Shown: positions 20,304 to 32,134 of the stretch, piece after piece
Layout of the letters: every line of letters begins with the position of its first letter
How positions within the stretch are numbered: position 1 is the stretch's first letter
DNA from: an uncultured archaeon
Lineage (GTDB): Archaea; Aenigmatarchaeota; Aenigmatarchaeia; CG10238-14; SCSR01
DNA length: 37,259 bases
Assembly: GCA_964423085.1 (NCBI GenBank)
Contig: CAYRDB010000003.1
Location: 1 to 37,259 of the forward strand
Reading direction: 5' to 3'
Notes under the pieces: generated by a model
What the model was told of the DNA's origin: nothing
Seen by the model: the letters and a program-made list of their open reading frames with translations, nothing else
Database searches by the model: none
Translations under genes and position numbers: made by a program

Positions 20304-22505
20304 TTACTCCTCTTCGTCTGAGCCCGAGTCTTTTATTCCCTTCCTCTCCCTGACTTGCTCTATTGTCTTCTCCCTCAAATCCTTAGGCAACTTCTCGAAA
20401 GCTATCTCGATCGTGCTATAGAATCCTCGCCCGCTGGTCGATGACTTTAGAGATGTATCGAATCCGAAAATGTCCGAGACAGGTATCTTCGCTGTTATCA
20501 CAGCAGAGCCGCTGTCGGTCTGTATGTCCATAACCTGCCCTCGCCTGTTCTCAACTTCCCTTGTCGCAACGCCTATCAATTCCTCTGGCAGGTCTATTCT
20601 CACAACCTGCTTAGGCTCCAAAAGCGTGATGTCAGCTTTCATGAATCCGTTCTTCAGCGTCCTTCTCATCGCCGGTATTATCTGCCCCGGACCGCGGTGC
20701 ACTGGATCCTCGTGCAGCTCTGCGTCTAGGAGTTTGACTTTTACTCCGTTGACAGGTTCGCGACAGAGCGGGCCTTCGTCAATAATGTTCTGGAAGGCCT
20801 GCTTGACCAGCTCCATGACTTCGTTCATATACTGAACTCCTTTTGTCATGTCCAGCAGCATGCTGCCGTTGTAAATAAACGTTACATTCTTCGCTTCGTC
20901 GTAGTCCATGCCGTACTCGCTGAGCTGCTTGGCTATGTCCGTCTTCTTCTTCTTTATTTCAAAGTCGCTCGGCAATTCGCCGCTCTTCATTGCAGCATAC
21001 ACTTTCTCCTCAACAGGTTCGACTATGATCTGGAATCTGTTGTGCTTGTTCGGCGACCTGCCCTCTACTTCAGGCGACTTTCCAAACACTGCCTCCCTGT
21101 AAACAACTATTGGCCTGGACATTTCAGCTTCTATACCCATGGCTTTTAGTTTCCTTTCAACTTTTGCTTCAAGGTGGAGCTCTCCCAGTCCAGAGACCAG
21201 ATACTCCCCAGTCTCCTGGTTTATCTTTATCTTCAATGTGGTGTCCTCCCTTCCGAGCCTCTTCAGCGCGTTCACCAGCTTTGTCAAATCCATTGTGTTC
21301 TTAGGTTCAATCGATTTTGTGACAACCGGCTCGAATATGTGCTTTATCTCCTCGAAAGGCTCCATCACATTTCCAGCATTGGTCACAGTCTCGCCTGTGA
21401 AAGCCTCGGGTATTCCTACAATTGCTACAATGTTTCCGGACGATATCTCGTCCACCTGTATCCTCTGTATTCCCTTGTATATTGCCACCTGCTGTATCTT
21501 TTCGTTCTTGTTCTGAGTGACCAAAGATACATCCATTCCCTTCACCAGCTTTCCAGAAAAGAGCCTTCCTGTAGCCACGAAGCCTACGTGCGGATCGGTT
21601 ACCATCTTTGTAATTACCATGGACAGCTTTCCGTTTGAATTGCAGTTCATCATGTCCTTTCCCATCTCGGTGGTAACGTCGCCCTTCCATATCTTTTCCA
21701 ACCTATACTGCTGCGCCTCCTTCGGGTTGGGAAGGTGCTTTATTATCATGTCCAAAACTACCTTGTGCATAGGCGCTATTCTCGCAAGCTCGTCGTCGTT
21801 TCCGGAGTTTGCCAAATCTATTATCTGCTTGAAAGTTATTCCGGTCTTTTGCATGTACGGTATTGATATAGCCCATTTCTTTACTCCAGAGCCGAATGCA
21901 ACGCTTCCGTCGCCGACCTGTACCGCCCACTTGTCCTTGTACTCGTCGTCCGCATACTTTCTTATCAACAGGTTGACATCACTTATGATTTTCGCAAACC
22001 TTTCCTGCATCATTTCTGGCGTAAGCTTTAGCTCGCGTATGAGTCTGTCAACCTTGTTTATGAAAAGCACCGGCTTGACCCTTTCCCTGAGCGCCTGCCT
22101 GAAAACTGTTTCGGTCTGAGGCATTATTCCCTCGACCCCGCAAACAAGAACTATTGTTCCATCCACTGCCCTCATTGCCCTCGTTACGTCACCGCCGAAG
22201 TCGACGTGGCCTGGAGTGTCAAGAAGGTTTATTATATAGTCCTTTCCTTCGTACTCGTGGACCATGCTAACATTTGCGCCGTATATAGTAAGCTGCCTCT
22301 CCCTTTCCTGTTCGTCGAACCATGTGAACATACCCGTGTCCCTGTCACCGACCACCTTCTCAGAAAGCATTCCAGCTCCTCCCATCAGGTTGTCTGTAAG
22401 CGCGGTTTTTCCGTGGTGCACGTGGGAGCTTGTGGCAACATTCCTTATCTGCTCGACACTGTTCATCGTGTCGGTTATCCTTTCTATAAGATCTTTTTTC
22501 GCCAT
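20304..22505 (-). CDS. fusA: Translation elongation factor 2 (aEF-2)
   Basis: HGKT, DTPGHVDF and NKVDR motifs, and the diphthamide-loop HEDPVHRG. The likely start is MAKKDL at 22505; the tracked 13-codon extension runs into rps7. Confidence 0.95.
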   Translation of the reverse strand: MAKKDLIERITDTMNSVEQIRNVATSSHVHHGKTALTDNLMGGAGMLSEKVVGDRDTGMFTWFDEQERERQLTIYGANVSMVHEYEGKDYIINLLDTPGHVDFGGDVTRAMRAVDGTIVLVCGVEGIMPQTETVFRQALRERVKPVLFINKVDRLIRELKLTPEMMQERFAKIISDVNLLIRKYADDEYKDKWAVQVGDGSVAFGSGVKKWAISIPYMQKTGITFKQIIDLANSGNDDELARIAPMHKVVLDMIIKHLPNPKEAQQYRLEKIWKGDVTTEMGKDMMNCNSNGKLSMVITKMVTDPHVGFVATGRLFSGKLVKGMDVSLVTQNKNEKIQQVAIYKGIQRIQVDEISSGNIVAIVGIPEAFTGETVTNAGNVMEPFEEIKHIFEPVVTKSIEPKNTMDLTKLVNALKRLGREDTTLKIKINQETGEYLVSGLGELHLEAKVERKLKAMGIEAEMSRPIVVYREAVFGKSPEVEGRSPNKHNRFQIIVEPVEEKVYAAMKSGELPSDFEIKKKKTDIAKQLSEYGMDYDEAKNVTFIYNGSMLLDMTKGVQYMNEVMELVKQAFQNIIDEGPLCREPVNGVKVKLLDAELHEDPVHRGPGQIIPAMRRTLKNGFMKADITLLEPKQVVRIDLPEELIGVATREVENRRGQVMDIQTDSGSAVITAKIPVSDIFGFDTSLKSSTSGRGFYSTIEIAFEKLPKDLREKTIEQVRERKGIKDSGSDEEE

Positions 22506-22515
22506 GAAAAACAAC

Positions 22516-23109
22516 CTATCTAGCGCCCTCTGCCTCTCTTTCAACGCGCTCCTTTTCCTTCACAGCTTCGGAGTTGCTTGCGTCATTCTCGCTGGCTGCG
22601 AGTATCTCCTTTGCCAGAGCTGCGGCCATGCCTTCCTTTTTACCGAAGCTCTTCCTGTAAGCAGACTGTGTTATGCTTCTCAGCGCGATGTCAACCCTTC
22701 TCTGCGGACTTGTAACAACAGCCCTTCTGACTATTATTCCACCCATCTGGTAGCCCGCAATCTCTTCCCTGAATGCAGAATTTTCTATAGCTTTTACAAG
22801 AACTTCTATTGGATTCTTTTTAGTCTTGCTCTCTATAATCTCCATCGCTTCCTTTACTGTATAAAAATGCTTTTCGAACTTTCCTGTCGCGCGCCCGGAT
22901 GATATTACATGCTTCTTGCTCCTGTGTCCAGGAACCATCAGCTTCGTAATCAGCCTTTCGACTATGTTAATCTTCCATTTGGACGCTCTCTTCGTCGAGT
23001 TCCTTCCGCCCGTCTTCGGGACTATGACAGGCTGCAGGCATATGTACCTTTCCAGACCTGCGTCTGCGACCTTCACTTCTCCCATGTCCCATTTGTCAAA
23101 GACTTTCAT
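22516..23109 (-). CDS. rps7: 30S ribosomal protein S7 (uS7)
   Basis: Canonical position between rps12 and fusA. uS7-like sequence (LITKLMVPG...KAIENS...REAEGAR). Confidence 0.9.
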   Translation of the reverse strand: MKVFDKWDMGEVKVADAGLERYICLQPVIVPKTGGRNSTKRASKWKINIVERLITKLMVPGHRSKKHVISSGRATGKFEKHFYTVKEAMEIIESKTKKNPIEVLVKAIENSAFREEIAGYQMGGIIVRRAVVTSPQRRVDIALRSITQSAYRKSFGKKEGMAAALAKEILAASENDASNSEAVKEKERVEREAEGAR

Positions 23110-23116
23110 AAAATCA

Positions 23117-23542
23117 CTATCTTGCCGGTTTCTGCTTCTTTCCAGCGACTATTTCTGGAAGGGAGATTCCATTTACTTTTGAAACTTTAAACTTTATACC
23201 AACCATGGTTCCTTTTGGGCCTCCCTGAGCTCCTCCTATCTTCTCGATTGTGACCTCATCATGCTCGTTCACATGATCAATGGAGTGGTTTCCTGGAACG
23301 TGCGCGGTTACCTGTATGTTGTTCTTTACCAATTGCACTCTAACACATTTCAGCAAACCAGAAGTAGGCTTTCTCTGGTCCACCACCCTCTTGTCAAGAA
23401 CTATTCCCTTGGCCTGAGGAGATCCCTCGAGTGGGTCCTGTTTCCAAAGCTCAAGCTGACGCCTCTTGTACCTTATGTCCTTCCACCTGAGCTTTTTGTG
23501 GCTCTTGCTAAGCTTCCTTGCTGCAAATTCTCCTCTTGCCAT
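23117..23542 (-). CDS. rps12: 30S ribosomal protein S12 (uS12), divergent decoding loops
   Basis: KCVRVQLVKN...EHDEV...KFKVSKVNGISL matches uS12. The near-universal PNSA and PGVR motifs read PTSG and MVGIK here. Confidence 0.9.
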   Translation of the reverse strand: MARGEFAARKLSKSHKKLRWKDIRYKRRQLELWKQDPLEGSPQAKGIVLDKRVVDQRKPTSGLLKCVRVQLVKNNIQVTAHVPGNHSIDHVNEHDEVTIEKIGGAQGGPKGTMVGIKFKVSKVNGISLPEIVAGKKQKPAR

Positions 23543-23551
23543 TACAATCGC

Positions 23552-24004
23552 CTAATGCACCAACAAATCATCTACGCTGTGGTTTCTCTTAAACAATTCT
23601 TTATAAATCTTTATATTTCTTCCCCCTCTCCCTATAACAATAGGGCGGTTCTTCTTTTCTATGCCAACTTCGATTGTCACCTTGCTGTCCTCGTTTCTAA
23701 CCTTTATCGCATTCGCCTGCGGTATCATGTTCTTCACGAACACCACAAGGTCGTTCGAGAACTCGAAGAGCTTTATGGTCTTCCCTATCACATTCTCCGC
23801 GTGCTTGACGCTGCTGCCGTTCTTTCCTATGGCAACGCCTATCTTTCCCTCTTCGACTATAAAGTACACAGTGCTTGTCTCGTCGTCCACAAGGCAGTCC
23901 TTCACAGGAGCGTGCGTTATGTTCTCAAAAAGGGTTATCAACCTTATAGTGTCGGTATCCAAAGTTAGCTTCATTTTATCCCCCAGATTTGTTACCTCTA
24001 GCAC
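23552..24004 (-). CDS. nusA: Archaeal NusA-like protein (two KH domains)
   Basis: GxxG motifs (AIGKNGSSV, VIGRGGRNI) and canonical position between rpl30e and rps12. An alternative start is MKLTLD at 23974. Confidence 0.85.
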   Translation of the reverse strand: MLEVTNLGDKMKLTLDTDTIRLITLFENITHAPVKDCLVDDETSTVYFIVEEGKIGVAIGKNGSSVKHAENVIGKTIKLFEFSNDLVVFVKNMIPQANAIKVRNEDSKVTIEVGIEKKNRPIVIGRGGRNIKIYKELFKRNHSVDDLLVH

Positions 24005-24005
24005 A

Positions 24006-24269
24006 TCATTTCGTTATCACTAGCAGCGAGATAGGGAACGGTTTTCCGCATATGACACCCAAGTCCTTGCTGCTGCCGTCGAACACTTCCACCTTCGTTC
24101 CAGACAGTTTGGCATCGTGTTCGACTTCGTCTCTCTTGGTTTCTGGGATGTTGTTCGCCATCACTATCAGCCTAGGAGAATTGTTTTTTATAAATTCCAA
24201 CGACTTGTTGTATCCAATTACAACGTTTCCCGCTTTCACCGCAGATTGTATTTCATTCGCAACGCTCAT
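24006..24269 (-). CDS. rpl30e: 50S ribosomal protein L30e (eL30)
   Basis: KAGNVVIGYNKS...LIVMANN...DLGVICGKPF pattern and canonical position after rpoA''. Confidence 0.85.
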   Translation of the reverse strand: MSVANEIQSAVKAGNVVIGYNKSLEFIKNNSPRLIVMANNIPETKRDEVEHDAKLSGTKVEVFDGSSKDLGVICGKPFPISLLVITK

Positions 24270-24274
24270 TCAAA

Positions 24275-25393
24275 TCAATCCTCGAATTTCGCGACAAGGT
24301 CAAACATTCCTGTACCCGAAGGTATTACTTGTCCTATCATTACATTCTCAAATATACCTTTAAAGTCATCTTTCTCTCCCTTTATGGTCGCTTTTACAAG
24401 ATGCTTTATCGTCTCCTCGAAAGCCGCCCTTGCGAGTATAGAGCTCTTCGATCCAGCGACACCGTATCTTCCAATAGACTTTACATCCCCAGACAGTGTC
24501 ATGATGTCGCTTACGAGCATCACGTGCCTTATGTCAACGTTCAGACCCTGGCCTTGCATTGTCTTGAGCGACTCGTCTATAATCACACTTCTTACAGCTT
24601 CGACGCCGAGTATCTTCTTTATTTCGTGTATGTCGTTCGATATTGTCCTGGTTTCGTCCACTTCTTTGATTTTGAGAACTTCCTCAAGGTTCGTCCCTAT
24701 GGTGTTTATCAGCCAGTTGTCGCCTTCCCTCCTGACTACGGCATTGCTTACCCCTTCCATTCCGCTGACATGCACTACCATTATCTTGTCCTTGAGCTTC
24801 TGCAATTCCTTTATGTCAACCTCTTCCTTGAACGAGACTGAAACCACATGAGTCGTGCTTGTGATTTTCTTCTTCTTGTCGTCCGCCATCTTAGACTCTA
24901 TGGCGCTCTTTATCGAGCCAAGCTTCCTCAAATCCTCGGGTTCTATGTCAATCGAATTGTTGTTGAGGTTTATTGATATGCTCTTAGAAAGGTCTGCTAC
25001 GTTCTTCTCTATTATGTCCTCTGCGACCTTTTTCGCGCTCTCCATATTGTCAAACTTTGAATCCAGATATATTGTCATGACCGGAGTCTCCGGCTTCCTT
25101 TTAGCGTCGAAAATTTCTATAAGCCTGGGGAGTCCATAAGTGACTTTCAAACCCGCAGAAGCTGCTACGTGATAAGTTCTCATTGTCATTTGCGTGGCAG
25201 GCTCTGATATGCTCTGAGCGGCTATTACGCCTATTGCTTCCCCTGGCTCGAAGCTGCTCTTTATGAACTCTTTCCTTACTTCCGATATCAGCTTCTCCCT
25301 CTGCGCGGCTGTCATCTTCTTTTCCCTCGCAGCTTTCTCCACGCGCTCCATCAGCGATGCTGGCAAGTCGTTTGCGTTTTCTGCTCCTTCCAT
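24275..25393 (-). CDS. rpoA2: DNA-directed RNA polymerase subunit A'' (Rpo1C)
   Basis: GEAIGVIAAQSISEPATQMTMRTYH trigger-loop region, and position after A'. Confidence 0.95.
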   Translation of the reverse strand: MEGAENANDLPASLMERVEKAAREKKMTAAQREKLISEVRKEFIKSSFEPGEAIGVIAAQSISEPATQMTMRTYHVAASAGLKVTYGLPRLIEIFDAKRKPETPVMTIYLDSKFDNMESAKKVAEDIIEKNVADLSKSISINLNNNSIDIEPEDLRKLGSIKSAIESKMADDKKKKITSTTHVVSVSFKEEVDIKELQKLKDKIMVVHVSGMEGVSNAVVRREGDNWLINTIGTNLEEVLKIKEVDETRTISNDIHEIKKILGVEAVRSVIIDESLKTMQGQGLNVDIRHVMLVSDIMTLSGDVKSIGRYGVAGSKSSILARAAFEETIKHLVKATIKGEKDDFKGIFENVMIGQVIPSGTGMFDLVAKFED

Positions 25394-25397
25394 ATAA

Positions 25398-28300
25398 TCA
25401 CTTTATCTTGTTCGCGATGTCCTCGACATCTATCTCTGCCTTTGTTATTTTCGACGGGTCTAGTCCATCCTCTCCCGCTATGAACTGTACTATGTGGTTT
25501 GCGCTGTCCCTTACAGTTCCGTCGTATTCGACTTTCAAGTCCTGCAGCGCTCCCACTAGCCTGCGCTCCATGTACCCGGAGTGCCTCGTCTTCAATGACT
25601 TATCCATCAGCGACTCTCTGCTGTTGATTGCGTCGAAGAAGAACTCGAAAGGAGTTAGGCCATCCTTGAAGCCTCTGCTTACGAATCCCCTCGCCTCTAA
25701 GCTTATGTCGCCGCGCTTGAAGTGCGGGAACGTCCTCTCGTAGTAGCCCCTTTCCATTCTTTCACCCATTATCATCTCTTGTCCTACGAGCGCGGATGTT
25801 TGTACCAGGTTTACAAAGCTTCCCCTGGATCCGCTCTTCGCCATTATAACCGTGAAATTGTCGCCTATATGGTTCACCAGAACTCCTTCCACTTCATCAA
25901 TAGCTTTGTTCAGCCTTCTCTTTATGTGGCTCTCCAGGCTCTCGCTGGCGCTCCTTCCCGGAAGCAGTTTTATTGTACCTTTGTCACACTCGTCTATCAA
26001 CAAATCCACATCCTTCCTAACATTGGATATTATATTTTCTATTTCCTTCTTCGCGTCCTTTGGTATGTCCTGATCGGATATGCTTATTGAGAACGCCGAA
26101 AGCATCAGCACATTTATCGAAAGCCTCGTTATATTGTACAGGAACCTTTTCGTTTCGTACGGGCCGCACTCGTGTTCTATCTTGTCTATAAGCTTGCCTG
26201 AGAACGCGCCCATCGAAGATGTGTCTATGCTTCCCTTGACTAGCTTGCCGTTTTCTATAACAACATATGCTTCGTGCTCGCACCCGGCTTTCTTGCACTT
26301 TTCGCACCCCATGCACGACTTTGTCTTGTGCTCTATGTTCAATCCTTTAGGCAGGAACACGCTGAATATCTCCTTTCCTGTCATTGTCTTCTTGTTCGGT
26401 ATTTCAATATCCTTGTCCACCGACCTTATGAGTTGCACGAATTGGTCTCTGGTGAATGTCTTTTCACCAGAAGTGAGATAGTATAGACCTGATATGTGGT
26501 CCCTGTGCGCTCCTATTATCGGCCCTGAGAACCTCGGGCTCCTTATGTTCTTAGGAACAATCATGAGTGTGTTCGCCTCTACCTGAGCTTCCTCTGTCTG
26601 GAGTACGTGCAGGTTCATTTCATCTCCGTCAAAGTCCGCGTTGTAAGGCGGGCATACCGACACGTTGAGCCTGAATGTCTTGTAAGGCATTACGCGAACC
26701 TTGTGAGCCATAAGGCTCATCCTGTGCAGACTCGGCTGCCTGTTGAAAAGAACAATGTCCCCGTCCCTTATGTGCCTCTCTACAACTGCACCGTTTTCGA
26801 CCTCCTTCACAATTTCTTCTTTGTTCAATTCGGTTATTTTCTTCCTTCTACCGTCAGCCCTTATAAGATAGTTTGCGCCAGGATACTTTGAACCGTTCAT
26901 AACTATCTTCTTTAATTCTTCGACATTGCCTTTGTGTACACGCACGGGTATTGTCAGTTCCTCTGCGACAATCTGCGGAACGCCTACTTCGTCTATGTCT
27001 ATCATCGGATCCGGGCTAACAACTGTTCTGGACGAGAAGTTGACCCTCTTTCCAGCAAGGTTTCCCCTGAACCTTCCTTCCTTTGTCTTAAGCCTCTGCG
27101 ACAGCGTCTTTAGCACTCTGCCCGACCTGTGCCTTGCTGGCGGCACGCCTGATATTTCGTTGTCGAAATACGTAGAAACATGATACTGCAAAAGCTCCCA
27201 GAGGTCCTCTATGATAAAGTCCGGAGCGCCAAGGTCTATGTTCTCCCTAAGCCTCTCGTTTATCCTAACTATGTCGACAAGCTTATGTGTCAAATCATCC
27301 TCAGACCTTTCTCCTGTTTCCAGCGTTATTGACGGCCTGACTGTGACCGGCGATATCGGCAGTATTGTCATGACCAGCCACTCCGGCCTCATGTTCAGAC
27401 CAATCAGCTTGAGGTCCTGAGTCTGCATCTTTTCAAGCCTCTCCCTGAGCATGTCTCCGCTTAGCGTCTTTTTCTCTTCGACAAAAGTGTAAGGCTTTAT
27501 GAACTTGTATTTTTTCTGCTGCTCTCCGCAGTGGGGGCATTTTTTCTTAGCTTCCTTGGCTATGTCTTTTAGCTTTATTTTCTTGCTCTTCGCCTGGTCT
27601 ATACCTGAGTCGTCCATGAGCAGCCTGCCACACTTTGAGCAGAACAACTTTAGCAAGCTGAATATGAATTTTGCATAATGGACATGCACAATTGGCTTCG
27701 TAAGCTCCAAATGTCCAAAGTGACCGTAGCACTCGCCGACACTGCCTCCGCACACCCTGCACCTTATTCCCGGATCAACCACTCCTAGCCTCGGATCCAT
27801 CAGGCCACCCTCTATAGGATAGCCTTCCTGGTCATAGAGCTCTGTTTTTGTGATTTTGGCCACGCTCATTTTGTTTATCATTTCTGGTGTGACCACTCCA
27901 AAAATTATGCTGTTCACCATGTTGTCTTCCCTGTTCACAACAAGCTTCGGATAAATCAGCATGCTCTTGAGCTCGTCAAGCATGAGCTTGAACGCATAGC
28001 TCATCTCCACGTTCATAATTTTCGAATTCCCGCAGACAGTGCAGTACTTTCTGTTCTTTATGCGGTCGTGTATGGCAAGCATGCCGCACTCTGCGCATAT
28101 CGGTATGATGGACTTGTCCGAGTCAAACCTTTCTTTGAGCGTGAGCGCAGCCCCGTGAGCAACCAGACAGTCCTTCTCCATCTCTCCCAACCTCAAGCCT
28201 CCCTCCTTGCTCCTTCCTTCGGTTGGTTGTTTTGTCAGAAGAGCCACAGGACCTCTGGACCTAGCATGTATTTTGTTCGAAACCAGATGATCTAGCTTTT

Positions 28301-29732
28301 GATAAAAGCAGCTTCCTATGAACACCTGCGCATCGAACCTTGAACCTGTCCTTCCGTCGTACATTGTTTCCTTTCCGTCGTTCCTGAATCCGTTGCTGTG
28401 TAACATGTCCCTTATTTCTGTTTCTTTAAGCGAATTGAATGCCGGAGCGTCGATGTATTTTCCAGACAGCGCAGCCACCTTTGCCCCCACGAACTCCAGG
28501 AGCTGACCCATAGTCATTCTCGACGGAATGCTATGAGGATTGAATATGATATCGGGCACGACACCATCCTCTGTGAAAGGCATGTCCTCCTCAGGAACTA
28601 TAAGTCCTATTACTCCTTTTTGCCCGTGCCTGCTTGCGAACTTGTCGCCTATCTCCGGAATCTTTGTGTCCCTTATAACTACCTTTATGAGCTTAGTTCC
28701 GTCAGTGGTTTCGGTTAGGAAAACCCTGTCAACTATTCCTTCATCACCATGCCTCAGCTTGACCGAAGTCTCCCTTATGTTCTCTATTCCTGTGATGAAC
28801 TGGTCCATAGTTCCCAAGAACCTCAGAGGGGACACCCTGCCCACTATAACATCATCCGACTTTACAATTGTCTCAGGGTCTATTATCCCGTCTTCTGGGA
28901 GGTGTTTGTAGACGTCCTCGCCTGCATAACCCCTGACACCGGCTTCGGGTATTCCTATTATGTCCTCTTGGCCACCCATGTACCTTTTCTGAACAGCTTC
29001 GTAGCTCCTCATCATCATGGACCAGAACAGGCCGCGCTGTATTGAGCTGGCGTTTACAATTATAGCATCCTCCATGTTGTAGCCGTCGAAGCACGCAACC
29101 GCTATTACGATGTTGGATCCGTTAGGATGGCTCGCATAGTTTATTATCTGGTGGCCTTGCGACTGGACCAACGGTCTATGAGCATAGACCATTACATTGG
29201 ATTTTGTGTCAACCCTGTTAAAATAATTAGTAGAGAATATTCCTATGCTCTGGCCTATCATCTTCGCTCCGTAGTTTACTCTGTCACCCCTGTCGAACTC
29301 TGGGAAAGGTATGAAAGACGCGGAGAGTCCGAGTATTATTGACGGATCTAGCTCAACGTGCGTGTGCTCAGGAGTTATGTCCTCAGGCTTTATTGCGATA
29401 TACGCGCTCTCCTCCTCTTCGGAATCGAGATACTCTATGATTCCGTTCTTGAACAAGTCGCTCCAAGAAAGTTCGCCGGATCTGACTTTGACCATTATCT
29501 CAGGAGTGAGCATTGACTTGCCGTCATTTACAATAATCGCGGGCCTCCTGACCCTTCCAGAATCGGACAGTATTTTGATTTCGTTAAGATGAGGATAATA
29601 GCAAACGTTGATTTGTTCTGAAATCTGGCCAGACCTTCTTTTTTCCTTTATGTCACTGACAAGACCTTCGGGATCTTCGGACCTTCCTAGGTACCTTCCA
29701 TCAATGTACACATCAACTGAATTTTCTGGCAT
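25398..29732 (-). CDS. rpoB1/rpoA1: Fused DNA-directed RNA polymerase subunits B' (Rpo2C, aa 1-604) and A' (Rpo1N, aa 605-1444) in one reading frame
   Basis: The B' part has GDKFASRHGQKG, LGEMEKDCLVAHGAA, the CAECG...CTVCG ribbon and YAFKLMLDELKSM. The A' part starts at Met605 (27920-27918) with IIFGVVTPEMINKMSV, CRVCGGSVGECYGHFGH and NADFDGDEMN. The junction codons AGG GAA GAC AAC ATG GTG contain no stop. Confidence 0.85.
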   Translation of the reverse strand: MPENSVDVYIDGRYLGRSEDPEGLVSDIKEKRRSGQISEQINVCYYPHLNEIKILSDSGRVRRPAIIVNDGKSMLTPEIMVKVRSGELSWSDLFKNGIIEYLDSEEEESAYIAIKPEDITPEHTHVELDPSIILGLSASFIPFPEFDRGDRVNYGAKMIGQSIGIFSTNYFNRVDTKSNVMVYAHRPLVQSQGHQIINYASHPNGSNIVIAVACFDGYNMEDAIIVNASSIQRGLFWSMMMRSYEAVQKRYMGGQEDIIGIPEAGVRGYAGEDVYKHLPEDGIIDPETIVKSDDVIVGRVSPLRFLGTMDQFITGIENIRETSVKLRHGDEGIVDRVFLTETTDGTKLIKVVIRDTKIPEIGDKFASRHGQKGVIGLIVPEEDMPFTEDGVVPDIIFNPHSIPSRMTMGQLLEFVGAKVAALSGKYIDAPAFNSLKETEIRDMLHSNGFRNDGKETMYDGRTGSRFDAQVFIGSCFYQKLDHLVSNKIHARSRGPVALLTKQPTEGRSKEGGLRLGEMEKDCLVAHGAALTLKERFDSDKSIIPICAECGMLAIHDRIKNRKYCTVCGNSKIMNVEMSYAFKLMLDELKSMLIYPKLVVNREDNMVNSIIFGVVTPEMINKMSVAKITKTELYDQEGYPIEGGLMDPRLGVVDPGIRCRVCGGSVGECYGHFGHLELTKPIVHVHYAKFIFSLLKLFCSKCGRLLMDDSGIDQAKSKKIKLKDIAKEAKKKCPHCGEQQKKYKFIKPYTFVEEKKTLSGDMLRERLEKMQTQDLKLIGLNMRPEWLVMTILPISPVTVRPSITLETGERSEDDLTHKLVDIVRINERLRENIDLGAPDFIIEDLWELLQYHVSTYFDNEISGVPPARHRSGRVLKTLSQRLKTKEGRFRGNLAGKRVNFSSRTVVSPDPMIDIDEVGVPQIVAEELTIPVRVHKGNVEELKKIVMNGSKYPGANYLIRADGRRKKITELNKEEIVKEVENGAVVERHIRDGDIVLFNRQPSLHRMSLMAHKVRVMPYKTFRLNVSVCPPYNADFDGDEMNLHVLQTEEAQVEANTLMIVPKNIRSPRFSGPIIGAHRDHISGLYYLTSGEKTFTRDQFVQLIRSVDKDIEIPNKKTMTGKEIFSVFLPKGLNIEHKTKSCMGCEKCKKAGCEHEAYVVIENGKLVKGSIDTSSMGAFSGKLIDKIEHECGPYETKRFLYNITRLSINVLMLSAFSISISDQDIPKDAKKEIENIISNVRKDVDLLIDECDKGTIKLLPGRSASESLESHIKRRLNKAIDEVEGVLVNHIGDNFTVIMAKSGSRGSFVNLVQTSALVGQEMIMGERMERGYYERTFPHFKRGDISLEARGFVSRGFKDGLTPFEFFFDAINSRESLMDKSLKTRHSGYMERRLVGALQDLKVEYDGTVRDSANHIVQFIAGEDGLDPSKITKAEIDVEDIANKIK

Positions 29733-29734
29733 TT

Positions 29735-31243
29735 TTACACCTTGACCGGCTTTACATGCTTTGAAAGCGTCTTCTCAAAGCTTTTCGAATCTTTCTCCTC
29801 AACACCCTTGGTAACCTCTGCCATTATGGCAAGATACTTTCGTAGTCCTATTGTAGCTCCTTCTGGAGTTTCGCTGGTACACAACTTGCCCCAATGGGTA
29901 GGATGAAGCTCTCTGGCTTCAAAGTGCTCCTGAGTGGATGTCAGCGGGGATAGCACGTTCCTCATATGAGATACCGTCTTTATGTAGCTGCTCCTTTCCA
30001 GCCTTTGGCTCACACCAGTCCTTCCGCCCACCCAGCTGCCTATAGCAAGAGCGGAGTTCAGCTGGTTGGTCAGCACATTGGACTCTACTATTGCCTGCAA
30101 AGGCGGCATCCTGCCCCTCTTTGTAAGCTTTTGATAATTGTAAGTTATCCTTGTTATCAAGCCCCACTTTCCGAGTAGAATCGACCTCAAAAGTATCTCC
30201 AAAAGGTCGCCCGAAAGCTTCAGCCTCTTGTTGGAATAATGGTCCAAATCATCCTCATCTATCTTCTTTAGATGCAGCCTTATAACTTTTCCAATCGCCT
30301 TTGCCAAAAATATTGCCTTTTGCATCCTGTCTGTCGGTTCCTGCCCGAGGTGCGGCAGCAGATACCTGTCGACCAACCTAGTGGCGCGCTCCATCCTGTA
30401 CTGCTCCTGCGGTATTTTTATATGCTTGCCTATCGCATCAAGCCCTTCAGTCTTAGTGGACACGTCCACCTCGTATAGGTTGGAATAGAACTCCTCCTGA
30501 ACAGCAGGGTCGTCCGACATAACCGTTATGATATCCTTGTCGCTTTCCAGGCCTAGAGCCTTCAAAAGTATTGCAACAGGCAGCTTCTTTATGTTGGCGA
30601 AGCTTATGGTCATTATGCCATTGTTCTTCCTTTCAATAAGGTGCCTCTGGACATAGCCGTCCTTCTCGGAGTGTATCCTGGCTATCTCTCCTATGTTCCC
30701 AGACTCGACTTTGGCAACTATAACCCTGTTCTGAGCTATCTCCTCAACAAGAACCAATATCCTCTCGGTGCCGTTTATAACAAAGTATCCGCCGGTGTCA
30801 TCTGGGTCTTCACCAGCTTCCACAAGCTCGCTCCTGCTCATATTAGAAAGGGGGCATATCTTTGACTTTAGCATGACAGGAAGGTCGCCAAAATTGACCC
30901 ACATACCCTCGCTCTCTATGCCGTTCATCACTGTAGACATCTCGATGAACATTGGTGCGCAATATGTTAGGTCCCTTATCCTGGCTTCCATCGGAAGTAT
31001 TTTCCTTTCGGATCCGTCCGCCTCCTTGACCCAGGGACCCCAGTTTTCCTTTCCTATCTTAAAGTCACCAAGTTTTATCTTGAACTCCCCGAGCTCTGGG
31101 ACATCCGGCTTAATTTCCTTTATCTCGCGGATAATCTTTGGTATTCTGTTAGTCACAAAGTCGTTATAAGAATTTATGTGGAAATTCACCAAGCCGCGCT
31201 CCTTCTTGAAAGCCTGCATCATGTCTATGAAATTCTGGTTCAT
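29735..31243 (-). CDS. rpoB2: DNA-directed RNA polymerase subunit B'' (Rpo2N)
   Basis: N-terminal half of the RNAP second-largest subunit (HINSYNDF, GYFVINGTERI, ETPEG). Ends with TAA at 29737-29735, 2 nt before the B' ATG. Confidence 0.95.
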   Translation of the reverse strand: MNQNFIDMMQAFKKERGLVNFHINSYNDFVTNRIPKIIREIKEIKPDVPELGEFKIKLGDFKIGKENWGPWVKEADGSERKILPMEARIRDLTYCAPMFIEMSTVMNGIESEGMWVNFGDLPVMLKSKICPLSNMSRSELVEAGEDPDDTGGYFVINGTERILVLVEEIAQNRVIVAKVESGNIGEIARIHSEKDGYVQRHLIERKNNGIMTISFANIKKLPVAILLKALGLESDKDIITVMSDDPAVQEEFYSNLYEVDVSTKTEGLDAIGKHIKIPQEQYRMERATRLVDRYLLPHLGQEPTDRMQKAIFLAKAIGKVIRLHLKKIDEDDLDHYSNKRLKLSGDLLEILLRSILLGKWGLITRITYNYQKLTKRGRMPPLQAIVESNVLTNQLNSALAIGSWVGGRTGVSQRLERSSYIKTVSHMRNVLSPLTSTQEHFEARELHPTHWGKLCTSETPEGATIGLRKYLAIMAEVTKGVEEKDSKSFEKTLSKHVKPVKV

Positions 31244-31252
31244 GCAATCGCC

Positions 31253-31513
31253 TTAAATAAACTCCCCTTTCACCACAACCCTATAGTAGGATATCGATCC
31301 TGCTATCGAGCTGTCCCTCGTTATCTTTATCACATCCCCTACCTTTGCGCCCAGTTTCTGAACCATCGGATCGGATGTCAGTATCCTTGGGAGCTGGTTG
31401 AGCGTTATGTTGTACTGCTGTAGCAGTTCGCCAGTCTCCTTATCGTTCAAAATTACATGTTTTGGCACAGCTTTGTGCTTTGAGATGTCAACTTCCTTCA
31501 ACATTACCACCAT
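31253..31513 (-). CDS. rpoH: DNA-directed RNA polymerase subunit H (Rpo5)
   Basis: VPKHVILNDKE...LPRILTSDP...GDVIKITR matches RpoH. Start candidates are 31519, 31513 and 31504. The tracked 122-aa ORF is an artefactual extension reading through tRNA-Asp. Confidence 0.85.
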   Translation of the reverse strand: MVVMLKEVDISKHKAVPKHVILNDKETGELLQQYNITLNQLPRILTSDPMVQKLGAKVGDVIKITRDSSIAGSISYYRVVVKGEFI

Positions 31514-31521
31514 TCCCATTG

Positions 31522-31619
31522 CGCCTCGGACGGGATTTGAACCCGTGTCACAAGCGATCTGCATAGCGCAGGTCGCGCCATTGACAGGCTTGTATGCTAG
31601 GCCCCTACACCACCGAGGC
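31522..31619 (-). tRNA. tRNA-Asp(GUC) with a 25-nt intron at 37/38
   Basis: Acceptor GCCTCGG/CCGAGGC with discriminator G73. The anticodon arm is CAAGC-CTGTCA[intron 31581-31557]C-GCTTG. The BHB comprises a CUGU:GCAG central helix and 3-nt bulges CAA and AUC. The T-arm is ACGGG-TTCAAAT-CCCGT. Confidence 0.8.
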
Positions 31620-31787
31620 ATTTCGCCGATGGGTAGTCAACCATAATACAACACTAATGTTTATAAATCAACTCCTCACTCCATCTCTAATCCATGGAAG
31701 ACTCTGACAGGCTGTTGAAAGCCAAAGAAAATGCTTTTTACTGACAGACTCAAAATTTCACCTTGGGTTGGATGGAAATTATAAATG

Positions 31788-31908
31788 TAGTTGGCAGCGT
31801 CCTGGGTTTTCCGAGCTTGTGGCTCAGTACAGTCCAGATCGTTAAGCATCTTAATTACTGTGTTCGAGATGGGAACAGATGTTTCATGCTTGCTTTGGCC
31901 GCCAACTA
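31788..31908 (-). rRNA. rrf: 5S rRNA (free-standing)
   Basis: The minus strand reads TAGTTGGCGGCC...CCCATCTCGAACACAG...TTAAG...GTACTG...GGAAAACCC...GCTGCCAACTA. The terminal helix I pairs 31908-31898 with 31798-31788. TATA-like ATTTAAGA lies about 25-30 nt upstream. Confidence 0.85.
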
Positions 31909-32019: not shown

Positions 32020-32134
32020 TCCCGTCGGGGAGAGTCGAACTCCCAACCCCCCGGTTTCTGTCAGAGCAAGAGCTACCAACAAGCGCAGTTGCGCTCGTCT
32101 ACAGCCGGATGCTCTACCATTGAGCTACAACGGG
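32020..32134 (-). tRNA. tRNA-Tyr(GUA) with a 43-nt intron at 37/38
   Basis: Acceptor CCCGTTG/CGACGGG with the C1-G72 pair characteristic of archaeal and eukaryotic tRNA-Tyr. The D-arm is GCTC-AATGGTA-GAGC. The anticodon arm is TCCGG-CTGTAG[intron 32098-32056]A-CCGGG, with central helix CUGU:ACAG and 3-nt bulges. The T-arm is GGGAG-TTCGACT-CTCCC. Confidence 0.85.

Follow-up and report, generated by a model that had tools for sequence, protein, structure and literature searches.

The stretch of DNA analyzed here (the window) comprises positions 1 to 37,259 of contig CAYRDB010000003.1 (assembly GCA_964423085.1) from an uncultured archaeon, and within its RNA polymerase (RNAP) operon the genes for subunits B' and A' are joined in frame into one. 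The open reading frame (ORF) listing of the window places this gene at 25398..29732 on the minus strand, with an ATG start and 1444 amino acids (aa) followed by a stop. Its translation contains no internal stops and crosses the junction as ...IYPKLVVNREDN-MVNSIIFGVV..., or, over a longer stretch, as ...AFKLMLDELKSMLIYPKLVVNREDN-MVNSIIFGVVTPEMINKMSV.... Pfam matches in the fused protein were Rpb2 domains 4, 5, 6 and 7 (aa 8-598) and then, over aa 605-1423, Rpb1 domains 1-4 with the N-terminal stretch of domain 5 (its first 66 positions). Rpb2_7 (aa 511-598) is followed by Rpb1_1 (aa 605-892) with no stop between them, so that the second-largest subunit is fused to the largest. An earlier reading made from the letters without database searches (the sequence-only reading) had proposed this in-frame fusion, and the uninterrupted ORF and the order of the domains, B' and then A', bear it out. 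We infer that the gene product is very probably a B'-A' subunit, covalently joined, that functions in an archaeal RNAP of otherwise standard composition.

The B' portion (aa 1-604; 27921..29732, minus strand), with its four Rpb2 domains, can be aligned with Pyrococcus furiosus B as far as residue 1113 (of 1117), and the A' portion (aa 605-1444; 25401..27920, minus strand), with its Rpb1 domains, aligns to P. furiosus and Thermococcus kodakarensis A' from residue 4-7. In unfused relatives B' is about 598-612 aa and A' 823-849 aa, and the linker of the fused protein is only one residue longer than the summed termini; the view that the sizes are additive, with nothing inserted or deleted, therefore holds. 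The two neighboring subunit boundaries keep their stops, as had also been noted: B''/B' (29733..29737, minus strand) has a TAA (29737-29735) plus a 2-nucleotide (nt) spacer, and A'/A'' (25394..25400, minus strand) has a TGA (25400-25398) plus a 4-nt spacer. Thus rpoB'' (29735..31243, minus strand; 502 aa, Rpb2 domains 1-3) and rpoA'' (24275..25393, minus strand; 372 aa, the remainder of Rpb1 domain 5) are separate genes in the ORF list and by Pfam. The operon is of the split-B archaeal type, H-B''-B'-A'-A''-L30e-NusA-S12-S7-EF2, with the break in B falling between Rpb2 domains 3 and 4 and that in A inside Rpb1 domain 5.

A consensus error that erased the B' stop or shifted the frame could make two truly separate genes look like one, and the commoner state in the phylum, with B' and A' 0-4 nt apart, is one that a single-base error could turn into an apparent fusion. 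We found the identical 1444-aa protein on at least nine contigs, and in the five loci shown, which come from five different sequencing runs (SRR29050545, SRR23426533, SRR8925737, SRR10812145 and SRR34170095), the same operon surrounds it. These independent assemblies stand in for the raw-read mapping proposed in the sequence-only reading, and they uphold the fusion. The other proposed check, a stop at the same junction in sister genomes, gave a similar answer; all 26 of the 26 members of the window's own clade are fused despite protein divergence of up to 26%, and the Shine-Dalgarno (SD) motif and start codon expected of a separate A' have been replaced. With independent assemblies and clade-wide conservation ruling out assembly error as its source, the fusion is genuine, and the chance that it is a sequencing or assembly artifact is vanishingly small. 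Its presence both in independent assemblies and in related genomes shows that it is inherited.

When the full-length protein was used as query, the best 120 matches were all fused, at 53-100% identity. About 90 of them were B'-A' proteins (~1420-1460 aa), while 28 (~1910-1930 aa) added Rpb2 domains 1-3 and so formed a complete B-A'. The named matches were almost all from metagenome-assembled genomes (MAGs) titled 'Candidatus Aenigmatarchaeota/Aenigmarchaeota archaeon' and were annotated merely as 'subunit A'' or 'subunit B'. The closest homologues and the syntenic loci thus come from genomes classified as Aenigmatarchaeota (DPANN). A query of this kind is biased, since fused targets score twice, and the deep lineages were sampled only via that list. 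We had considered a phylum-wide shared derived trait and rejected it: the 120 of 120 is a query artifact, and both the GTDB loci and a search with A' only show separate genes to be commoner. A query that spans the junction retrieved 53 loci from GTDB species representatives (titles Aenigmatarchaeota archaeon, uncultured archaeon or archaeon), and reading-frame analysis of those that could be scored gave 14 fused and 34 separate; about two thirds of the Aenigmatarchaeota species representatives have separate B' and A'. The A'-only query served as a sample that does not favor fused proteins. Its 18 closest clusters (>=74% identity) all had a fused junction, and below 74% identity there were roughly 90 separate A' (823-849 aa) versus roughly 30 fused. 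One of the 18, P0297 (862 aa), seems to be separate, yet it opens with the B' tail, MLDELKSMMIYPK.... No separate A' closer than 73% identity to the window was found in this search. A search of representatives at 50% identity listed one junction-spanning representative of the Aenigmatarchaeota type and two unrelated ones, and such representatives may conceal fused members.

The sequence-only reading had called a B''|B'-A'|A'' arrangement an unusual archaeal RNAP architecture. The arrangement is real but not isolated: many Aenigmatarchaeota lineages have it, in alternation with the separate state, and full B-A' fusions also exist. About 28 clusters from deep Aenigmatarchaeota lineages (P0083-P0116, ~1910-1930 aa) are complete B-A' fusions of ~1911 aa. 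The B subunit itself is split (B''|B') in some lineages of the phylum and unsplit in others, locus L047 having a separate, stop-free B frame of 1091 codons. At least four large-subunit architectures coexist in Aenigmatarchaeota. Proteins that are 62-69% identical to that of the window and nested in Aenigmatarchaeota (P0362, P0071) are labeled by NCBI as 'Candidatus Heimdallarchaeota archaeon' and 'Candidatus Woesearchaeota archaeon'; these are probably mis-binned contigs or mislabeled MAGs.

In order to follow the two states through the phylum, two neighbor-joining trees with 100 bootstraps were produced, one of 157 tips from B'+A' without the junction columns and one of 256 tips from A' by itself. 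The window fell in an all-fused clade of 26 tips with 100% bootstrap in the A' tree, and in the same clade, with 24 tips and 100%, in the B'+A' tree. The minimum pairwise identity among those 24 was 74% (B'+A'), and the nearest unfused species lies at 73-75% identity to the window. The divergence within the clade is therefore comparable to the distance to the nearest unfused species, which indicates that the fusion is old, fixed and maintained in the window's lineage. Elsewhere on the tree fused and separate sequences are intermixed. Fused sequences clearly sit among separate ones in two places: L009/L010/P0034, within an otherwise separate clade of 100% support, and P0028, inside a clade of separate sequences with 96-100% support; conversely, the separate loci L038 and L041 lie within an otherwise fused clade of 20 with 100% support (all in the A' tree). 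With nodes under 70%, 90% or 95% support collapsed, at least seven state changes were required as a lower bound, and the resolved tree gave 14-16. The length of the linker also differs from clade to clade (10, 11, 12, 13 or 14 residues), and these clade-specific lengths point to several origins.

The junction itself shows how the fusion could have come about. The conserved YPK of B' is separated from the IxF of A' by 12 residues, L597-S608 (LVVNREDNMVNS; 27909..27944, minus strand), within the letters ...LVVNREDNMVNSIIFGVVTPEMINK..., and a tryptic digest would give the junction-spanning peptides LVVNR / EDNMVNSIIFGVVTPEMINK. In separate loci B' ends in ...IYPK-x3-K-E-E-stop, and the last codons, AAG GAG GAG (AAGGAGGAG), are the SD motif of A'. 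The spacer from the stop to the ATG was between -4 and +4 nt in 32 of the 34 separate loci, frequently as a TGATG or ATGA overlap, and thus the separate genes are already translationally coupled. The distance from YPK to IxF was 12 residues in 13 of the 14 fused loci, versus 11 summed residues in 26 of the 34 separate loci; a fused junction is therefore what results when the stop of a separate one is translated as one amino acid. A length alignment puts D603 (27926-27924) at the former stop position and N604 (27923-27921) at the former start position. The step can be seen almost directly by comparing L048, which is separate (KED-TAA-ATG: KED*MLVERIEF), with L011, which is fused (KEDKMSVDRIEF), as the two are one substitution apart. 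Loci L009-L011 still have both KE[ED] and the Met and are young fusions, while in the window's clade the SD motif and start Met have decayed, to GAA-ACG-TTG (E-T-L) in L001 and GAC-AAC-ATG (D603-N604-M605) in the window. We suggest that rpoB' and rpoA' were a gene pair with only 0-4 nt from stop to start and that the rpoB' stop changed into a sense codon, after which the ribosome would read straight from B' into A' to give a single 1444-aa polypeptide.

Whether such a chain could fold was approached by AlphaFold2 modeling of aa 540-960 with an 88-sequence alignment, the structure prediction that had been proposed for the linker. The model had a mean predicted local distance difference test score (pLDDT) of 77 and a predicted template-modeling (TM) score of 0.74, with a pLDDT of 86-94 at the junction, and DSSP read the junction as a strand at 593-600 (IYPKLVVN), a turn at 601-604 (REDN) and a strand at 605-613 (MVNSIIFGV), a confident beta-hairpin. 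The best PDB sequence match for the junction fragment was 3qqc_A (E value 7e-61), which was also the top Foldseek hit in the PDB (E value 2.8e-34, TM 0.72/0.80, root-mean-square deviation 2.7 A, 365 columns), with archaeal Rpo1N chains next. From the predicted hairpin and the match to 3QQC it follows that the joined termini are, in the model, neighboring antiparallel strands of the clamp, for which a four-residue turn suffices; the junction is thus a short linker of 12 residues with no inserted domain. Since these termini are adjacent strands, the fusion is mechanistically unsurprising. The last strand of B' and the first strand of A' would already lie side by side in the clamp, so the enzyme should assemble normally, with the architecture H | B'' | B'-A' | A'' and, as the sole change, two clamp halves that are covalently tethered and produced in a strict 1:1 ratio.

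The structural model also bears on the possibility that cleavage at the linker after translation restores separate B' and A'. The linker is a four-residue turn in a confidently predicted hairpin rather than an exposed loop, its residues are not conserved among the fused lineages (REDN, RGET, KPGS, EEER ...) and show no shared motif, and Pfam found RNAP domains only, with no intein or protease domain in the fused protein. The gene thus does not have the features of a polyprotein processed by an intein or a protease, and we consider cleavage very improbable.

A second way to obtain a free A' is internal initiation, which the sequence-only reading had suggested for Met605 (ATG, 27918..27920, minus strand). 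Ribosomes might start there, or at the next GTG, to make A' beside or instead of a functional B'-A'. An ATG followed by a GTG does stand where the homology to A' starts, with a weak purine-rich AGGGAAG 12 nt upstream, and some recently fused lineages (e.g. L009-L011) retain the Met and the SD-like KE[ED] stretch. Met605, however, is missing in nearly all fused homologues, and no other member of the window's clade has it, the relatives carrying L, S or T there. By length alignment it lies one position past the ancestral start, which is now Asn (N604) in the window and Thr in relatives, and it appears to be a lineage-specific TTG-to-ATG change at a former Leu position rather than the ancestral A' start. 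AGGGAAG is all that precedes it, whereas AGGTG, AGTGAT or AGGCGAT stands 5-8 nt before other genes of the window; a GGTGAT-type SD is missing. On these grounds of conservation, position and SD motif we rejected Met605 as a relic start or internal initiation site, and internal initiation there as a conserved mechanism is unsupported by the sequences compared. A fused gene with two products is accordingly improbable, and the fused chain would still be made.

A working, covalently joined B'-A' subunit thus remains the preferred explanation, and some points weigh against it. The accumulation of the 1444-aa chain and its incorporation into the enzyme are deduced from the gene. The window covers 37 kb of the genome, and a second, separate rpoA' elsewhere is formally possible. 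The Aenigmatarchaeota label derives from the names that the sources give to the best matches. The neighbor-joining trees contain no outgroup from another phylum, and neither the direction of single transitions nor the ancestral state of the phylum is read from them.

Loss of a stop codon is mutationally cheap and, judging from the model, structurally tolerated, which is why the fusion has come about many times in the phylum and has probably been undone as well. We infer that the fusion is nearly neutral, because the two states alternate often and the translational coupling of the separate genes was already in place. The alternative is that the fusion is adaptive, i.e. that tethering of the clamp was selected in genome-reduced symbionts, for example for assembly or stoichiometry. 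This question concerns selection and not the gene product, and the explanations weighed here are not all mutually exclusive with a functional B'-A' subunit. The persistence of the fusion in the window's clade, whose proteins have diverged by 26%, the recurrence of the fusion in many lineages with linkers of 10-14 aa, and the more extreme fusions in other reduced archaea (~1911-aa B-A' and 2214-aa B-A'-A'') would fit selection, but close relatives alternate between separate and fused, the separate state is still the majority, and separate genes whose stop overlaps or abuts the start are already coupled. Helicobacter pylori in which rpoB and rpoC have been split by engineering is reportedly viable. 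We regard the adaptive alternative as unlikely.

It is tempting to speculate more broadly that the B'/A' boundary in Aenigmatarchaeota is a natural evolutionary toggle, with at least seven transitions and with independent origins marked by linker lengths, extending to the ~1911-aa B-A' and, in one unrelated reduced archaeon, the 2214-aa B-A'-A'', and that fusions are favored in genome-reduced symbionts where they secure clamp assembly and stoichiometry. We put this forward tentatively, as a possibility that is more doubtful than not. If it were true, these lineages would offer a natural experiment for asking why multisubunit RNAPs are divided at all. In archaeal phylogeny, splits and fusions of large RNAP subunits, described as rare (PMC5484517), serve as rare-event markers, and the assumption of rarity fails in Aenigmatarchaeota because the junction between B' and A' switches state repeatedly. 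The automatic labels 'subunit A'' and 'subunit B' on fused proteins can distort marker-gene counts and completeness estimates. The fused proteins also provide natural, full-length single-chain variants of the clamp with which the structure and assembly of archaeal and Pol II-like RNAPs can be studied. The fusion is notable chiefly for its recurrent gain and loss in one phylum and for its clean one-codon mechanism.

Several additional large-subunit arrangements were seen beyond the window's close relatives. An 18.7-kb contig from Logan SRR24908257 (L059:4732-11376, plus strand) has a 2214-aa ORF with Rpb2 domains 1-7 followed by Rpb1 domains 1-5, that is, B-A'-A''. Its context is archaeal, with S19e upstream, S12, S7 and EF-2 downstream and tightly overlapping genes; the protein is 36% identical to that of the window, and no close relative of it was found in a search of 5.8 billion proteins. 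Another ORF, of 1665 aa (P0202, 13 contigs; L060/L061:6001-10998, plus strand), has a complete Rpb2 and Rpb1 domains 1-2 and then a stop. With DOT1, GIY-YIG, DnaJ and many ORFans as neighbors, L060/L061 looks like a giant-virus contig, and P0202 appears to represent a further independent join at the B-A' junction plus a new split of Rpb1. Some more distant relatives (P0124, 1658 aa; P0123 and P0128-P0131, 1158-1383 aa) begin like A' and are full-length, unsplit A'+A'' subunits, and in one of them Rpb1 domain 5 is interrupted by an intein that carries a LAGLIDADG domain.

The remainder of the operon is conventional. Downstream of rpoA'' are L30e, NusA-KH, S12, S7 and EF-2 (20304..24269, minus strand) in the canonical archaeal order, as identified by Pfam and by gene calls in other assemblies. 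As called mechanically, the EF-2 ORF (20304-22544, minus strand) has a TTG start and 746 aa; the identical sequence in other assemblies is called as 733 aa, which probably puts the true start 13 codons past the TTG. The first gene of the RNAP operon is rpoH (31253..31621, minus strand), a 122-aa ORF with Rpb5_C at aa 44-116 (Pfam). Rfam places tRNA genes at 31522-31619 (50.8 bits) and 32020-32134 (54.1 bits) and a 5S rRNA at 31789-31906, all on the minus strand; ARAGORN found no tRNA anywhere in the window, versus the two by Rfam. Both tRNAs carry insertions in the anticodon loop, of 27 nt and 46 nt, which are presumably introns. The tRNA at 31522-31619 overlaps codons 1-33 of the rpoH ORF, and since Rpb5_C spans only aa 44-116 as well, the real start probably lies within the ORF, near codon 35-40, at Met35, Met37 or Met40 (MGMVVMLKEV...).

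Among known systems, the canonical split-B operon of the methanogen/halophile type has the same gene order and the same B''/B' and A'/A'' splits; the window differs from it in having no B'/A' stop codon. Da Cunha et al. 2017 described split and fusion events of RNAP as rare, mentioning only a re-fusion of A' and A'' in Pacearchaeota, along with an unsplit A in Thaumarchaeota and Bathyarchaeota, and their curated dataset excludes DPANN, Aenigmarchaea included (PMC5484517). The re-fusion in Pacearchaeota is similar in that the split or fused state of a large subunit was altered in a fast-evolving DPANN lineage, but its junction lies within the largest subunit and not between subunits. Neither a 2026 survey of how archaeal RNAP subunits evolved (PMC13257274) nor a comparative-genomics paper on DPANN (PMC8407392) mentions fusions of the large subunits, and we found no archaeal B-A' fusion described in the searchable full-text literature, a 2026 bioRxiv preprint on DPANN insertions included.

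A designed counterpart exists in the rClamp of 3QQC, in which Martinez-Rucobo et al. 2011 combined P. furiosus B 1053-1115, A' 3-318 and A'' 334-371 through short linkers to obtain a soluble, correctly folded protein that binds Spt4/5 (PMC3094117). As in the natural fusion, the C terminus of B is joined to the N terminus of A', and the construct shows that such a join permits both folding and the binding of Spt4/5; unlike the natural fusion, the rClamp is an artificial domain construct with Gly/Ala/Ser linkers and an A'' segment, not a full-length natural subunit. The closest analogue, and a natural precedent, is the rpoB-rpoC fusion of Helicobacteraceae and Wolbachia, for which PMC7483510 refers to Lane & Darst 2010 and to Zakharova et al. 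1999. The sequence-only reading had drawn this comparison, and it is apt, as the joined termini are neighboring strands of the clamp both in the AlphaFold2 hairpin and in the engineered 3QQC (PMC3094117). In both cases the C terminus of the second-largest subunit is joined to the N terminus of the largest by a short linker at the orthologous clamp position, and in both the fusion originated from adjacent or overlapping genes. The archaeal event is independent, however; its partners are themselves split subunits, so that B'-A' (1444 aa) stands between a separate B'' and A'', and the trait is not fixed family-wide but alternates at least seven times within one phylum. With domains of the archaeal Rpb2/Rpb1 type and closest relatives that include unfused archaeal genes, the window's gene shows no sign of common descent with the Helicobacter and Wolbachia fusion. 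On this sequence comparison the archaeal and bacterial fusions are analogous and not homologous, the archaeal one having apparently arisen within Aenigmatarchaeota, and the archaeal counterpart of rpoB-rpoC, whose sequences were already public, is a new archaeal form of a known type of fusion.

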